Part shown: piece by piece, positions 2,759-32,950 of the stretch
Position numbering within the stretch: the stretch's first letter is position 1
Layout of the letters: every line of letters begins with the position of its first letter
UHGV virus genome: UHGV-1545242
Direction: 5' to 3' (one strand)
From: a virus
DNA: 38,625 nucleotides
Notes under the pieces: model-generated
What the model saw: the letters and a program-made list of their open reading frames with translations, nothing else
The model's database searches: none
What the model was told of the DNA's origin: nothing
Position numbers and translations under genes: made by a program

Positions 2759-3050
2759 AAACCACCCCACAACATCCTATGCCGCTATAGTCGCCACGGC
2801 GAAGGCCGTTAACTTTTGTGATACATTGGTCCCTGCGAACCGCGATCCTTGCACGTTCAACATCACCAGAAGCAACATCCATACACTGAAGCCAAAGGTG
2901 AGCGGCAATGCGGAATTGCCCTTTTTTCTCTCTTTCAATCGCGCGTTTTTCGATCTCTATCGCCGCAGGAGTAACGGCGACAATCTTTGACGGACTGCGC
3001 ATTGAAACCTTATTCATGTGATATTTTTCAAGTCGGCTTAACTTTCTCAC
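2751..3050 (-). CDS. Hypothetical protein, first gene of the hypothetical-methyltransferase-phosphatase operon
   Basis: 99-aa ORF whose stop overlaps the methyltransferase start; no recognisable motif; start uncertain. Confidence 0.4.
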   Translation of the reverse strand: MRKLSRLEKYHMNKVSMRSPSKIVAVTPAAIEIEKRAIEREKKGQFRIAAHLWLQCMDVASGDVERARIAVRRDQCITKVNGLRRGDYSGIGCCGVVYD

Positions 3051-3159
3051 TTAATCCAACCCTCTCTGAAAATTAATGCCAGCAGATAAAGCCATGCTGA
3101 AACAGAGGCCAGGAATAAGTACCATCCTGACCATTTGCTCCAGTGCCTTAGCAGCGCAC

Positions 3160-3457: not shown

Positions 3458-4480
3458 TTACTCGAATTCTGGACGCATATCGTTAAGCGTCATCATGAAT
3501 TTTTGGTGATATTCATCACCGAGCTTTTCAGCCATGGTGTTAATTTCATTTTCAGCGCGCTTGAACATCGTTTTTGCATCTTCAGCAGATGGATCCAGGC
3601 TATTAAGTATCGCGATGATATATTCTCGAGCTTCTTCTCGTTCTGAATCTGAAATTGGCGACAGGTGTTGACGCTCATCGTCAACTACGGAATATTCACC
3701 AGTGATAACAGCTGCGTTATCTTGGCTAAGTCCAGCTTCAGCGCGCTCATCCATAACAACAGCCTTCTGCATTTCAATAGAAACAGGAAGATATTTGAAC
3801 AGTCGGCGAATTACTGTTTTTTTAGCCATCTCATCGAAGTGATCAACCCATGGGCCACTGCTACCGGCTTTGCTCAGTGCACGAACTTTCTCAACGTCTG
3901 CCCGGCTCATAACTTCAAATTGGACTCCGCCATCTTTCAGTCGTGCAACGGCGTAAACGTGCGTTAATTCTCCGCGGTCACCTGTTTCGCAAGGTAAATG
4001 CTCGAGCGTTTCTTCCAGGCCGTATGAGTAGCTGAATTTGTCGTTTGTATGTACGGTACGAGCCGAGATACTCAGGATCTGCCCAGAGCGGCGGGCAAGG
4101 TCAATCATTCCGCGATAGCCGATAATCAGCTGTGCTTCTGTAGATACGGTTTCCCATCTTCCATTTACTTTCTGGCGTTTGTCGAACGGTATCAGGTAAG
4201 CGTGTCCAAGAGCTCCGCCTGGTTCAAGACCCAATTGGGCACATTGCATAATTGCCCCCAGGAAGCTGGCTTGGTCGCATGATGCAAGTTTTGGAACCTT
4301 TCTGATCTCTGTGGTTGCTATGCGCGCCAGACGGTCTGCTGTCATGTGCTTTGGAAGTGCCAAAGCCATCTGAGCTTTAATTTTTGGGTCTGCCAGAAGT
4401 CCGGCCAGAGTTGTTGGTTTCTCATTATGATGTGCAACTTGGTTACCGGTAGCCGCTGCCTTAAGTGCATTGATAGACAT
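3458..4480 (-). CDS. recT: RecT-family single-strand annealing recombinase
   Basis: LIIGYRGMIDLARRSGQI and VYAVARLKDGG blocks characteristic of RecT (Rac prophage type). Confidence 0.9.
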   Translation of the reverse strand: MSINALKAAATGNQVAHHNEKPTTLAGLLADPKIKAQMALALPKHMTADRLARIATTEIRKVPKLASCDQASFLGAIMQCAQLGLEPGGALGHAYLIPFDKRQKVNGRWETVSTEAQLIIGYRGMIDLARRSGQILSISARTVHTNDKFSYSYGLEETLEHLPCETGDRGELTHVYAVARLKDGGVQFEVMSRADVEKVRALSKAGSSGPWVDHFDEMAKKTVIRRLFKYLPVSIEMQKAVVMDERAEAGLSQDNAAVITGEYSVVDDERQHLSPISDSEREEAREYIIAILNSLDPSAEDAKTMFKRAENEINTMAEKLGDEYHQKFMMTLNDMRPEFE

Positions 4481-4489
4481 TTTTTCTCC

Positions 4490-5368
4490 TTACTTCATTC
4501 TGAAGACGCGTTGTGTCGTTGTTGTTTTGAATTTTTCGAATAACTCAGGGTGTACTGACTGGAATAGCTTCTGGTCGAATCTGTTGCTGATCTGAGATTT
4601 CCATGTGCAGAGCGGCTTTCCGTCCAGGGTCAGGACTGAGTGCTCTTGCATGTACATCTTCAGCTTCTCTTCTGATATAGCTATTTCTTCTTCCAGTGAT
4701 TTTCTGCGTGATTTCATGTCTCGTAGATCGTTGAATAGTGCGAGTGCCTTTCCGTCAGCCTCGATACTTGTCCCGGCATCTTTCTCAAACATCAGCGATA
4801 CATCGCTTACGCTGGTAGCTTCCGGCGGGTTAAGATTTTTCACTCGGTCCCAGAAAGCGATTTCTTTTTCTAAGATCGCCTGGATAGTTTCTTCATCACG
4901 CTCAACCCGATAGATTCGGAAGTCGTCGCCACCGATAAGCACACCGAAAACGCATACCTGTTTGTTTGTAACCATCAACCCGTGCATGGCCTGGGCCGTG
5001 TAATGCACAGGAATTGCATCTGTCTGGATTTCTCCCCATTCTTTGGCTTTGAACGGACTAACTGTTTTGATCTCAATATTCTCGCCTGACGCTGCTTCTG
5101 CATCGATCTCAGCTGCAATAAAATCGTAATCACGGTGGATATAGCGGTTTCCGCGATGAACGATTTCCATCCCTGTTTCCTCAGAAAGCAGGTCTATTAC
5201 GTATGGCTCCATACGCTGGCCACGCGTGAAAACTTTCTGCTTGCTTGGGTCTACTGGTTTGACACGTGGCTGGACCTTATCCAGATAAACCTCAAGCGGG
5301 GTGCGCCATGGGCTAATTCCAAGAATCCCTGCAACATCGCTTCCTCCGATGTATTTTGTTCTATCCAT
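4490..5368 (-). CDS. YqaJ-type (lambda Exo-like) recombination exonuclease
   Basis: N-terminal GGSDVAGILGISPWRTPLEVY motif of YqaJ viral recombinase domain; immediately upstream of recT; start taken at MDRTKY (ORF extends to 5389). Confidence 0.85.
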   Translation of the reverse strand: MDRTKYIGGSDVAGILGISPWRTPLEVYLDKVQPRVKPVDPSKQKVFTRGQRMEPYVIDLLSEETGMEIVHRGNRYIHRDYDFIAAEIDAEAASGENIEIKTVSPFKAKEWGEIQTDAIPVHYTAQAMHGLMVTNKQVCVFGVLIGGDDFRIYRVERDEETIQAILEKEIAFWDRVKNLNPPEATSVSDVSLMFEKDAGTSIEADGKALALFNDLRDMKSRRKSLEEEIAISEEKLKMYMQEHSVLTLDGKPLCTWKSQISNRFDQKLFQSVHPELFEKFKTTTTQRVFRMK

Positions 5369-5385
5369 GATTCCAGCGTTCCGCA

Positions 5386-5685
5386 TCATGCCGCGTCCCT
5401 CTGCCCATCAAGCTGATCCGCCAGATCCCAGCGCGCTATAATTGCCATTGCCTCGCGCCGGTAGGCATCCATCAGTTCTTCGAACTCAGGGCTGTCTTTA
5501 GCAGCCTCCAGCACTTCCTGACGAACGCCTTTGCCTGTTACAACGTCGAAAGTTGAGGACAGTTGATGAAGTCGGATGCTCTCAATCAGTTCAACTTGTC
5601 GGTCATATAGCTGTTCTGACAGGCGGTAGTCCTTGTCGAATGCCAGCATGATTTTTTGAAGATTTTTCTGCTGATTAACGTTCAT
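5386..5685 (-). CDS. Hypothetical early protein
   Basis: ORF with GGGAGGG Shine-Dalgarno 7 nt upstream of MNVNQQ start; no recognised motif. Confidence 0.55.
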   Translation of the reverse strand: MNVNQQKNLQKIMLAFDKDYRLSEQLYDRQVELIESIRLHQLSSTFDVVTGKGVRQEVLEAAKDSPEFEELMDAYRREAMAIIARWDLADQLDGQRDAA

Positions 5686-5687
5686 TA

Positions 5688-5840
5688 TCAGCCCTCCCAT
5701 ATCTCGTTATCGTTGGCTACATCGCGAGCTTCTTTGCTGACGAAAGCCCACTTAATGCCTTCCTGTAAGGTGCGGAACTTCCAGCTCATGAATCCGCATG
5801 CAGTAACGCAGTACCAACCGTTGATGATTTTCCACTGCAT
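5688..5840 (-). CDS. Small Trp-rich protein (49 aa), first gene of leftward early operon
   Basis: Manual translation MQWKIINGWYCVTACGFMSWKFRTLQEGIKWAFVSKEARDVANDNEIWEG; GAGGT SD 8 nt upstream; below 60-aa track cutoff. Confidence 0.45.
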   Translation of the reverse strand: MQWKIINGWYCVTACGFMSWKFRTLQEGIKWAFVSKEARDVANDNEIWEG

Positions 5841-5921
5841 AACTTGTTACCTCGGTCTGTTACTGTTGGGGTAATAATTATGCTTATTTGGTTTGGTGTC
5901 AATAGATATGAGTTAAAAAAA

Positions 5922-5936
5922 TTACCCGTAAGGTAA
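5922..5936. promoter_or_regulatory. Operator-like palindrome TTACC-N5-GGTAA (leftward early promoter region)
   Basis: ttacccgtaaggtaa between repressor terminator and first leftward gene. Confidence 0.6.
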
Positions 5937-5946
5937 TCTATCTGGC

Positions 5947-5971
5947 AATAAAAAAGCCGCCATGAGGCGGC
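5947..5971 (-). terminator. Rho-independent terminator downstream of repressor gene
   Basis: GCCGCC-tcat-GGCGGC followed by T-run on minus strand. Confidence 0.6.
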
Positions 5972-5993
5972 TTACTTACTGAAAACTATAGTT

Positions 5994-6578
5994 TTATTGT
6001 TTGCTTTTTTCGTTCTGGTTGATGACAAATTCAATGTAACTTTCGATCTTTGCTTTCTCGGTTTCGGGTAACAATGCGTAGCGTGAGCGGTCATAGTTGA
6101 TAGTCGCAGGGTCGTGCGGGTGAATCAGTAGTTCATATCCGTGACGCCCGAATGCGGATGCAACATTCTCCAGGGTGGAAATGGAAACGCTGACCTCATT
6201 GTTTAACAGGCGGCTGATTGTCACCTGGGCGACGCCGGATGCGCGGTGAAGTTTTCCCTGCGTTGAAAGGTCGCGGCTTTCGCTCATCCAGCGTTCCAGG
6301 TTGTGAGCCGCCAGCTGACCAATGTCGCTTGGGCCGACAGGCTGAAAACCTTCCTGAGAAAGCGAGCGATCGATATCAAGCCAGTTACGGGGTTTATTGG
6401 CGGCAGCTTCAATTTTTCGCGCAACCTGGTCGCCGATAACCTTCTTGCCAAGAGCCCAGCGGTTTACCAGATTTGCCTGAGTTCCAAGTTTTTCTGCCAT
6501 CCGCGTCTGAACACCATTGAATTCACGGTCGATCAAGTCGTTGAGATTTTGCCTGCGGACGTCCTGGATACTTTTCAT
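5994..6578 (-). CDS. Prophage repressor (CI-like position), HTH DNA-binding protein without S24 peptidase domain
   Basis: Divergent from Cro-like gene; two HTH-like segments (MAEKLGTQANLVNRW; GVAQVTISRLLNNE); no Ala-Gly/Ser-Lys LexA-like autocleavage motifs seen. Confidence 0.7.
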   Translation of the reverse strand: MKSIQDVRRQNLNDLIDREFNGVQTRMAEKLGTQANLVNRWALGKKVIGDQVARKIEAAANKPRNWLDIDRSLSQEGFQPVGPSDIGQLAAHNLERWMSESRDLSTQGKLHRASGVAQVTISRLLNNEVSVSISTLENVASAFGRHGYELLIHPHDPATINYDRSRYALLPETEKAKIESYIEFVINQNEKSKQ

Positions 6579-6633
6579 TTTCTGGAAAATCGCCTCATAT
6601 ATGAATCAGTAGATGATTCAATTTAAAGCAATA

Positions 6634-6648
6634 TTACCCAACAGGTAA
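6634..6648. promoter_or_regulatory. Operator-like palindrome TTACC-N5-GGTAA (repressor/cro intergenic)
   Basis: ttacccaacaggtaa. Confidence 0.6.
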
Positions 6649-6681
6649 ATGCACCTCATAGGTAACCATCCTTGATTTTTG

Positions 6682-6696
6682 TTACCTTATGGGTGA
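6682..6696. promoter_or_regulatory. Operator-like near-palindrome TTACC-N5-GGTGA (repressor/cro intergenic)
   Basis: ttaccttatgggtga, 48 bp from previous site. Confidence 0.5.
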
Positions 6697-6732
6697 ATAT
6701 TTATTATCTGAAATAAATATCAGGCAATAGCT

Positions 6733-6963
6733 ATGAGCGATAACGGACATTTCGATTTCAAAAAGCACTGGCTTGCACTTACTCCGGATGAGCGTGAAGC
6801 CTTCGCACAGGAAGCCGGAACGACGAGTCACTATATCCAGACTCACTTAACAGGTAAGCGCAAAATGCCAGGTAAAGTATTGATGAATGGGCTTTTTAAA
6901 GCCTGTAAAACAAGACAATGGCTGCGCTCAAAAGCAGAACTGGCATACTTCTTCTACTCATGA
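6733..6963 (+). CDS. Cro-like small DNA-binding regulator
   Basis: 76-aa ORF divergent from repressor across operator-containing intergenic region. Confidence 0.6.
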   Translation: MSDNGHFDFKKHWLALTPDEREAFAQEAGTTSHYIQTHLTGKRKMPGKVLMNGLFKACKTRQWLRSKAELAYFFYS

Positions 6964-7018: not shown

Positions 7019-7033
7019 GTACCTCAAAGGTAA
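7019..7033. promoter_or_regulatory. Operator-like near-palindrome GTACC-N5-GGTAA after cro terminator
   Basis: gtacctcaaaggtaa, preceded by atctattcgt. Confidence 0.45.
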
Positions 7034-8957: not shown

Positions 8958-8972
8958 TTACCTGCTGGGTAA
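8958..8972. promoter_or_regulatory. Operator-like palindrome TTACC-N5-GGTAA downstream of P-like gene
   Basis: ttacctgctgggtaa. Confidence 0.55.
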
Positions 8973-9019: not shown

Positions 9020-9034
9020 TTACCTCAGGGGTAA
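9020..9034. promoter_or_regulatory. Operator-like palindrome TTACC-N5-GGTAA overlapping RBS of frameshifted gene
   Basis: ttacctcaggggtaa, 62 bp from previous site, AT-rich promoter-like DNA between. Confidence 0.55.
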
Positions 9035-9037
9035 ATC

Positions 9038-9381
9038 ATGAGAAAACAGATACAGGCTCTTGGTCGACTCAAAACAGGCCAGATGAACAAAACAGAATCT
9101 GCGTATTGCCAGCACCTTGAGCAGCGTAAACGTGCAGGGGAAACGCCTGGTATCGGTTCGAGGGTATCAAGCTGCGGTTAGCTGATAACACGTTTTATAC
9201 GCCAGATTTCGCTGTGATGCTCGCCACCGGCGAGATGGAACTGCACGAAGTGAAAGGTTTCTGGACCGACGACGCCAGGGTGAAAACCAAAGTCGCCGCA
9301 GATCAGTATCCGTTCCGAATCATCGGGGTAACGGTTAAGCCAAAGAAAGCAGGTGGTGGCTGGAACATCGAAGAGTTCTGA
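9038..9381 (+). pseudogene. Frameshifted gene (recalled as DUF1064 family); reading frame broken near 9150-9180
   Basis: ATG at 9038 reads 47 codons to TAG at 9179; a second frame is open from ~9146 to TGA 9379 (WYRFEGIKLRLADNTFYTPDF...); total 344 nt, not a multiple of 3. Confidence 0.5.
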
Positions 9382-12610: not shown

Positions 12611-13281
12611 ATACTGCCGCCAACTATGGTGGCTTTATTTTGCATGGTACTATTACCACAACGGTAACTATTACCACGGTGGTTATGATGCCTGCTGAAC
12701 CTAAAACCTATAAACGCAAATCAACGCAATTTAAGCCACTAACAGCAATGCAGGAGGCTTATTGCCAGTCATACATCAAAACGCCTGAAAACCAGACTCA
12801 GGCAGCGATTAACGCAGGATTCTCCCCAAATACAGCGGCAGTTAAAGCCAGTGTCATGATGCGCGACGAACGCATTCAAAAACGGATTGCCGAGTTGATG
12901 GAGGAGCGCAACAAACGAATGCGCGTCAGTGCTGATTACGTTCTCATGCGCCTGGTGGAGATCGACCAGATGGACGTGATTGATATCCTCAACGACGATG
13001 GGAGCCTTAAGCCAATCCGCGAGTGGCCGAAAATCTGGCGCACTACGCTTAGCGGCTTTGATCTGTCATCGACCATCATGAACATGAACGAGGATTCGAT
13101 AGAGACAATCCTCAAAAAAATTAAATGGCCTGACAAGGTGAAGAACCTCGAACTGATTGGTAAGCACGTCGACGTCAACGCATTCAAAGAACGCCTGGAT
13201 GTTAATGTGAATGTGACAATTGCTGATCGCATAGCAGCAGCCAGGAAGCGACTCAAAGAACGTCAGGATGGTAATCAGTGA
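12607..13281 (+). CDS. Terminase small subunit
   Basis: Segment AMQEAYCQSYIKTPENQTQAAINAGFSPNTAAVKASVMMRDERIQKRIAEL matches the Terminase_2 small-subunit pattern; start may be internal (MMPAEP at ~12685). Confidence 0.75.
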   Translation: MNTAANYGGFILHGTITTTVTITTVVMMPAEPKTYKRKSTQFKPLTAMQEAYCQSYIKTPENQTQAAINAGFSPNTAAVKASVMMRDERIQKRIAELMEERNKRMRVSADYVLMRLVEIDQMDVIDILNDDGSLKPIREWPKIWRTTLSGFDLSSTIMNMNEDSIETILKKIKWPDKVKNLELIGKHVDVNAFKERLDVNVNVTIADRIAAARKRLKERQDGNQ

Positions 13282-15375: not shown

Positions 15376-15452
15376 TGGCGTGGCATGCAGGATTCGAACC
15401 TGCGACCAACCGCTTAGAAGGCGGTTGCTCTGTCCAACTGAGCTAATGCCAC
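15376..15452 (-). tRNA. tRNA-Arg (anticodon UCU)
   Basis: Manual fold of minus-strand sequence: 7-bp acceptor stem GTGGCAT/ATGCCAC, D arm GCTC/GAGC, anticodon stem ACCGC/GCGGT with loop CTTCTAA, T arm GCAGG-TTCGAAT-CCTGC, encoded CCA. Confidence 0.85.
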
Positions 15453-15774: not shown

Positions 15775-15789
15775 TTACCTGAAAGGTAA
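15775..15789. promoter_or_regulatory. Operator-like palindrome TTACC-N5-GGTAA upstream of portal/late operon
   Basis: ttacctgaaaggtaa, identical to site at 32822. Confidence 0.55.
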
Positions 15790-32821: not shown

Positions 32822-32836
32822 GTTTTGCAAATTACC
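32822..32836. promoter_or_regulatory. Operator-like palindrome TTACC-N5-GGTAA in divergent region upstream of tailspike
   Basis: ttacctgaaaggtaa; followed by atctattcgta, also seen at 7011-7021. Confidence 0.55.
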
Positions 32837-32950
32837 TGAAAGGTAATATCTATTCGTATTTACAGTCTTTCTATCCATATGTGGTTTTCCAGGTAATAGA
32901 ATAACCAGATATGCGGCGCAACGGGTGCTGCGACTATCTGGAGATTTAAC

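Follow-up and report, generated by a model that had tools for sequence, protein, structure and literature searches.

A short open reading frame at the head of a leftward early operon is, as judged from its substitution pattern among relatives, a genuine protein-coding gene under strong purifying selection, which falls most heavily on residues 1–25. Specifically, the gene occupies positions 5688..5840 on the minus strand of the 38,625-nucleotide viral genome analyzed here (UHGV-1545242; hereafter the window), comprises 153 nt from ATG to TGA including the stop codon, encodes 50 amino acids, and is the ortholog of phiV10 p39 and epsilon15 gp37 (PHROG 898); we refer to the family as gp37. The gene is already known: GenBank, RefSeq, and PHROGs list its product as hypothetical and give it no function. 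Of note, it represents no new kind of element; what the present analysis adds is that the frame behaves as a real gene under selection, that a homology to CIII or Kil is wrong, and that the neighboring gene lies in the slot of Gam.

The gene and its relatives

The start codon is the ATG at 5840 and the stop codon the TGA at 5690..5688. A Shine–Dalgarno motif, GAGG, is located at 5850..5853 on the minus strand, 9 nt upstream of the start codon, and in nine out of nine aligned phages GAGGT is kept upstream of the gene. The stop codon is followed by TA and then by the ATG of the next gene at 5685, a start that agrees with the annotated start of phiV10 p38 and with a GTG start in relatives; both the Shine–Dalgarno motif and the 2-nt gap are, therefore, as the original prediction had them. 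The predicted length of 49 residues was one short of the actual 50 codons plus stop. Trp accounts for five of the 50 residues compared to 1.7% of residues in the long ORFs of the window (binomial P = 0.002), bearing out the earlier description of the protein as Trp-rich, and W3, W20, and W31 are nearly invariant across the family. Because the six frames of the window yield 216 ORFs of 50 aa or more, a length of 50 codons is not significant by itself and it is conservation that decides.

The region 5300–6700 of the window is 97–98% identical at the DNA level to Escherichia phages phiV10, ZX5, PAS61, and TL-2011b and to O157 typing phages 9 and 10. Uetakevirus phages of Enterobacter and Salmonella are more distant relatives. 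By sequence similarity, the window is thus a phiV10/epsilon15-like temperate podophage of the Uetakevirus type. The small protein is 100% identical to phiV10 p39 (YP_512294.1), 79% identical to its ortholog epsilon15 gp37 (NP_848245.1), and present with 100% identity in 16 phage records. It matches PHROG 898 over its entire length (E = 1.9e-38; residues 1–50 on profile positions 1–50 of 50), as do 39 of 39 aligned relatives. The gene had been described as unannotated, which holds for the ORF track on which that description was based and not for public records, where it is annotated as hypothetical in phiV10, epsilon15, and, under the RefSeq/PGAP entry WP_001198620.1 ("hypothetical protein"), in E. 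coli genomes. Pfam (E ≤ 10), NCBIfam, and PADLOC gave no match for the protein, and mucolipin-2, the sole sequence-profile match in the PDB (E about 1), was set aside as a chance match. No mention of the protein was found in the literature searched, which included searches by accession and PHROG number.

We gathered 183 loci via the small gene itself or via the repressor and found a gp37 homolog in all of them using the family HMM (183/183; 103 + 80), one homolog being only a truncated ORF of 33 aa. In the 181 loci with both neighbors readable, the homolog lies 150–320 nt downstream of a Rep-type repressor gene; it is the first ORF, on the same strand and ahead of the exonuclease and RecT genes, even at 39–50% identity. 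Of 5426 complete E. coli genomes, 559 carry the locus. The gene is, then, a core part of the Rep-type immunity/early-left region, shared by all relatives examined and by about one-tenth of complete E. coli genomes. A HMMER search over 1.84 billion representatives returned 19 proteins, all of them gp37-family members in Enterobacterales except for a 1929-aa protein matching in five short stretches, which we judged spurious, and a collection of 5.8 billion proteins contains 64 gp37-family clusters at 90% identity. All named members are from Enterobacterales (Escherichia, Salmonella, Klebsiella, Enterobacter, Citrobacter, Kluyvera, Raoultella, Scandinavium, Hafnia, Serratia, and "Ca. Erwinia dacicola").

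The two halves of the protein vary to different extents. Residues 1–25 (MQWKIINGWYCVTACG[FL]MSWKFRTL) are almost invariant in the group formed by Escherichia, Salmonella, Klebsiella, Enterobacter, and Citrobacter, while the C-terminal half is variable and occurs in at least two forms. We also observed that the gp37 DNA of epsilon15 and VB_ST_E15 (loci L005 and L008) is identical through codon 25 (dS = 0), after which dS rises to 0.74; past this codon the sequence switches to the other C-terminal "allele". The gene thus seems to contain a mosaic recombination junction. The C-terminal types assort freely with the type of repressor and with the next gene.

Selection on the reading frame

Each of 17 diverse relatives has an open sense frame, whereas two open antisense frames survive in only 10–11 of the 17. 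The original prediction had named loss of the frame in relatives as a reason to give it up; the frame is kept. Among closer relatives, the variable sites in codons 1–25 number 5, 3, and 17 at codon positions 1, 2, and 3, respectively. By the Nei–Gojobori method, dN/dS is 0.05–0.2 for the whole gene and 0.02–0.12 for codons 1–25, with a dS of 0.6–1.6 in the latter. Because dN/dS is low despite a high dS, the constraint is on the protein and not on the DNA or RNA.

We also considered that the ORF or its leader might harbor an RNA element. There is no Rfam match over the small gene and leader, and the fold of the leader together with the 5′ coding region is nothing unusual (z = –1.0). A candidate 8-bp pairing that sequesters the start codon was rejected as it is broken, and not compensated, in Klebsiella phages. 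Likewise, an antisense ORF of 72 aa on the plus strand (5656..5874) was rejected because it acquires stops in distant relatives and the substitutions fit the minus-strand frame. In the RefSeq record of Enterobacter phage Tyrion (locus L004), it is this antisense ORF, with 70 aa there (2905–3117, minus), that is annotated instead of the gp37 homolog at 3001–3150 (plus), and in VB_ST_E15 nothing is annotated at the homolog. Because the substitution pattern and the stops in relatives support the gp37 frame, these two gaps look like annotation errors.

Promoter, operators, and downstream genes

Directly upstream of the gene is a σ70-type early-left promoter on the minus strand (5874..5902), with TTGACA as the –35 element (5902..5897), a 17-nt spacer, and AATTAT as the –10 element (5879..5874); the two hexamers together match the consensus at 10 of 12 positions, and both elements are conserved in nine phages. 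Transcription would start near 5867, giving a leader of ~27 nt. Two operator-type palindromes flank the promoter: TTACC-N5-GGTAA with one mismatch at 5860..5874, which abuts the –10 element and covers the presumed transcription start, and the exact TTACCCGTAAGGTAA at 5922..5936, 20 nt upstream of the –35 element. Three more (6634–6648, 6651–6665, and 6682–6696) are located between the repressor gene and a divergent cro-like gene, and the GenBank record of epsilon15 labels the equivalent palindromes as repressor binding sites. The placement of the small gene as the first after the leftward promoter/operator, which the original prediction had asserted, is confirmed by this arrangement.

The repressor gene itself (5994..6578, minus strand) encodes a 194-aa protein of the SPC32H/epsilon15 Rep type with two HTH domains, for which the epsilon15 record cites PDB 5d50 as an HHpred match. 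Overexpression of the ZX5 repressor, which is stated to be identical to that of phiV10, blocks the lytic cycle (PMC9782041). The repressor gene ends in an intrinsic terminator at 5954..5973 (minus strand; an 8-bp GC-rich stem and a T run), annotated as a terminator in phiV10, which insulates the early-left promoter against read-through of repressor transcription. The divergent cro-like regulator (6733..6963, plus strand; 76 aa, PHROG 35) marks the rightward arm of the immunity region. Because operator-type palindromes flank a σ70 promoter, the small gene is expected to be repressed in the lysogen; it would be silent there and turned on as soon as the phage infects or is induced.

Palindromes of this type are not confined to the immunity region. 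TTACC-N5-GGTAA occurs in seven exact copies in the 38.6 kb of the window, and in 36 copies with at most two mismatches compared to ~10 expected. Exact or near-exact copies outside the immunity region are located at 136–150, 7019–7033, 8958–8972, 9020–9034, 12653–12667 (plus 12671–12685), 15775–15789, and 32832–32846. Those at 8958 and 9020 bracket a promoter-like "ATCTATTGATT..." in the same layout as in the early-left promoter, and an ATG follows closely at 9039. "Repressor" sites are also annotated scattered across the epsilon15 genome in its GenBank record. These scattered sites suggest that the repressor directly controls several promoters.

The leader differs in length among relatives. 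Salmonella and Klebsiella relatives (L003, L005, L006, L007, and L008) have ~66 nt of extra leader at the equivalent of ~5855–5860 of the window, and this carries a small hairpin and, directly 5′ of the Shine–Dalgarno motif, a third operator palindrome. In these long-leader phages no stop interrupts the frame as far back as the TTG in the –35 hexamer, giving rise to spurious ORF calls of 91–93 aa. We rejected this "long form", which occurs in loci of the Salmonella type and in a number of database entries, as an ORF-calling artifact, since it begins within the –35 hexamer; database entries of 92–93 aa (P0042, P0051, and P0053) may have the same origin.

On the downstream side, the small gene is followed on the minus strand by gp36 (5386..5685; 99 aa, phiV10 p38/epsilon15 gp36, PHROG 856), a YqaJ/RecE-like exonuclease (4490..5389; 299 aa), and the RecT single-strand annealing protein (3458..4480; 340 aa); after RecT come an AlpA-like (AlpA/Xis-like) gene and then a PerC-like gene. 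No terminator-like site was found on the minus strand from 5900 down to ~430, and in all loci the stop of the small gene abuts or overlaps the next start, with the 2-nt gap in the window and an ATGA overlap in most relatives. Because there is no terminator and the stop and start abut, the small gene would be co-transcribed with, and probably translationally coupled to, the genes downstream, i.e. those for the Gam-slot protein, the RecE-like exonuclease, RecT, and the AlpA/Xis-like and PerC-like proteins.

The exonuclease and RecT are 91% and 93% identical, respectively, to those of epsilon15. In phiV10, p37 (L001, 4812–6572) is annotated as a single 586-aa "RecE-RecT fusion", compared to separate genes in the window (3458–5389, minus strand), reflecting either a real fusion/deletion in phiV10 or a module swap. 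Elsewhere in the window, a tRNA-Arg(TCT) gene at 15376–15452 (minus strand; ARAGORN, 73 bits in Rfam) is encoded on the other strand than the structural genes around it.

The gene that follows the gp37 homolog varies among loci and can be gp36, a PHROG 1376 insert, Gam, a gam-like gene, a PHROG 3486 gene, or the exonuclease gene. A Pfam Gam protein follows in locus L014 (3819–4106), a gam-like PHROG 1050 protein holds the pre-exonuclease slot in L016 (4240–4524), a PHROG 3486 protein is next in Serratia loci, and the exonuclease itself is next in L012. In the window, this slot is occupied by gp36, which aligns weakly with the Pfam Gam protein of L014 in BLASTP (28% identity over 65 aa, E = 4e-4), with an hhalign probability of 23%; the hhalign probability against lambda Gam is 2%, and Pfam, including PF06064 (Gam), gave no match. 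gp36 may be a diverged RecBCD inhibitor. The exonuclease downstream is either of the YqaJ type or of the DUF3799 type, and the gp37 N-terminus remains invariant with both. Because the next gene and the exonuclease family are interchangeable, the conserved gp37 N-terminus is unlikely to contact gp36 or the exonuclease.

The PHROG 1376 gene, which is absent from the window, encodes ~325–355 aa and directly follows the gp37 homolog in ~49 of the 181 loci with both neighbors readable; examples between gp37 and gp36 homologs are L009 (6150–7196), L016 (3249–4229), L029, L108, L151, and L160. It has no Pfam, NCBIfam, or PADLOC match, accompanies every type of gp37 and repressor, and is a mobile accessory gene.

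Predicted fold and possible roles

AlphaFold2 (AF2) with 39 sequences gave a model with a β-β-β-α topology (pLDDT 75.7), in which antiparallel strands are predicted at residues 2–6, 9–14, and 18–22 and a C-terminal helix (25–48) is packed against the sheet; this replaced an unreliable helical model from 16 close sequences (pLDDT 54). The predicted fold agrees with the alternating hydrophobic pattern and with conserved Gly at two turns, and corresponds to a predicted soluble mini-domain with an aromatic core of W3, Y10, W20, F22, W31, and F33. The hydropathy profile contains no transmembrane segment (maximum 19-residue Kyte–Doolittle mean, 0.57). The window protein carries a net charge of 0 (–4 to +4 among family members), D or E occurs at positions 6–7 in relatives, and a conserved basic DNA-contact surface was not found, there being no invariant Arg or Lys except for the mostly conserved K21. 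Foldseek searches of the model against PDB and BFVD gave nothing significant. Halves of PH domains, MmoD, release factors, and UPF0339 fit the predicted fold as well as or better than DNA-binding domains, and because many unrelated folds match equally, the β3-α fold is uninformative about function.

A protein that is too small for an enzyme, not basic, and not hydrophobic would most likely act by stoichiometric binding and modulation of a protein partner, and the reading that we favor, giving it an even chance of being correct, is that of a small early protein with a conserved binding partner. The sheet of gp37 is near-invariant, while between the window and epsilon15 Rep is only 43% and gp36 only 51% identical, arguing that the partner is conserved across host genera; it would be a host or phage protein highly conserved across Enterobacterales. 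The favored role is one in early host takeover or as an accessory beside the anti-nuclease and recombination module. Early proteins of small size encoded next to the promoter have frequently proved to be specific inhibitors of host machines. A bolder version, which we put forward tentatively and consider rather less probable, is that gp37 is a new class of small effector, made first after derepression, in which the invariant N-terminal sheet binds an essential and highly conserved Enterobacterales protein. The target would perhaps be the division, DNA-repair/nuclease, or defense machinery, and the protein would prepare the cell for the later Gam-like and RecET functions. If this were true, ~10% of sequenced E. 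coli genomes would hold a silent copy of an uncharacterized host inhibitor.

Known proteins of similar size are encoded at similar positions in lambda and P22. We took two lambda proteins (CIII and Kil) and four P22 proteins (C3, Kil, Arf, and Abc1) from the respective reference genomes and compared each with a profile of 39 gp37 sequences using hhalign. One possibility is a functional analog of Kil that lacks homology to it and transiently blocks host division, e.g. via FtsZ or ZipA, after induction. The size class fits, and so does the position, as the kil genes of lambda and P22 are directly upstream of gam or recombination genes; the positional analogy to the lambda cIII/kil slot that had been drawn for the window holds, as relatives have a Gam or gam-like gene between the gp37 homolog and the exonuclease gene, just as kil is directly upstream of gam in lambda. 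hhalign probabilities are only 0.2% for lambda Kil and 0.3% for P22 Kil. Known phage division inhibitors are unrelated in sequence to one another, so the missing homology is no bar to a Kil-like function. The argument is, however, one from position alone, and many unrelated functions fill such slots. We regard this possibility as unlikely.

Alternatively, gp37 could be an accessory to recombination or anti-nuclease functions in the manner of Arf or Abc1, helping RecE/RecT or the Gam-slot gene, e.g. via RecBCD, SbcCD, or RecT. The gene is always co-oriented and contiguous with those for the exonuclease and RecT and usually with that for a Gam-slot protein of ~95–100 aa; gp37 and gp36 each match 36 records in the phage collection with the same split by host genus, and the abutting stop and start suggest matched stoichiometry. 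However, synteny with the repressor is equally perfect and, therefore, linkage alone cannot place gp37 in the recombination module. Moreover, the next gene is interchangeable and the exonuclease family changes while the gp37 N-terminus is invariant, and the hhalign probabilities are 0.1% for P22 Arf and 0.4% for Abc1. We hold a dedicated recombination accessory to be improbable as well.

Still less probable is a small nucleic-acid-binding regulator with a fold like that of AP2 or an integrase arm, tuning the early-left operon or the immunity switch. Against it are the equal or better matches to PH-domain halves, MmoD, release factors, and UPF0339, the range of charge without conserved basic residues in the family, and the lack of a match to DNA-binding families in Pfam or NCBIfam.

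The original prediction had noted a loose resemblance of the N-terminus, MQWKIINGW, to MQYAIAGW of lambda CIII, and a CIII-type inhibitor of FtsH that raises the frequency of lysogenization would likewise be a short protein of a leftward early operon. In hhalign the probability is 0.7% for lambda CIII, with the sole aligned segment not including the N-terminus, and 0.2% for P22 C3. Pfam, which contains a CIII family, gave no match at E ≤ 10. The residues that match superficially (MQ[WY]xIxxGW) form part of the predicted β-strand core, and MQW becomes MIS, MVW, or MVF in distant members. CIII acts through a central amphipathic helix, while the only helix predicted in gp37 (25–48) is C-terminal and varies more across the family than any other part. 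Given the hhalign negatives, the likeness is due to chance, and we conclude that the small protein is neither a homolog nor a structural analog of lambda CIII; a CIII-type function is, accordingly, highly improbable. The same low standing applies to an ORF of which only the translation matters, by loading ribosomes on the next cistron or keeping Rho off the leader: the promoter-proximal position, the strong Shine–Dalgarno motif, and the stop abutting or overlapping the next start in all loci are what it predicts, but a dN/dS of 0.02–0.12 and 25 invariant residues at a dS of about 1 are unexpected for a peptide-independent ORF, and a coupling role is, in any case, compatible with a function of the protein.

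The small gene is a sensible and inexpensive choice when small phage proteins are screened by toxicity and pull-down assays.

Among known systems, the likeness to the β3-α mini-domains of AP2, UPF0339/YegP, MmoD, T7 gp1.2, and the C-terminal halves of PH domains is one of minimal fold only, with 2–13% sequence identity and no shared functional residues identified. Lambda CIII and P22 C3 resemble the small protein in having about 50 aa and in being encoded in a repressor-controlled leftward early operon upstream of recombination genes; they differ from it in lacking a sequence relationship and in their fold, an amphipathic helix versus the predicted β3-α here, and lambda cIII, unlike the small gene, is not promoter-proximal, as N, ral, and ea10 come before it. 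The Kil proteins of lambda and P22 (47–62 aa) are encoded immediately upstream of gam in lambda and of arf-erf in P22, much as the small gene directly precedes the Gam-slot gene, but have no sequence relationship to it. P22 Arf, a 47-aa cofactor of Erf, and Abc1 are similarly encoded beside a phage recombinase and an anti-RecBCD module, but are also unrelated in sequence, and the recombinase here is RecT rather than Erf. With no differences to set against it, epsilon15 gp37/phiV10 p39 is the same gene, placed as here with the Rep repressor on one side and gp36/recET on the other.
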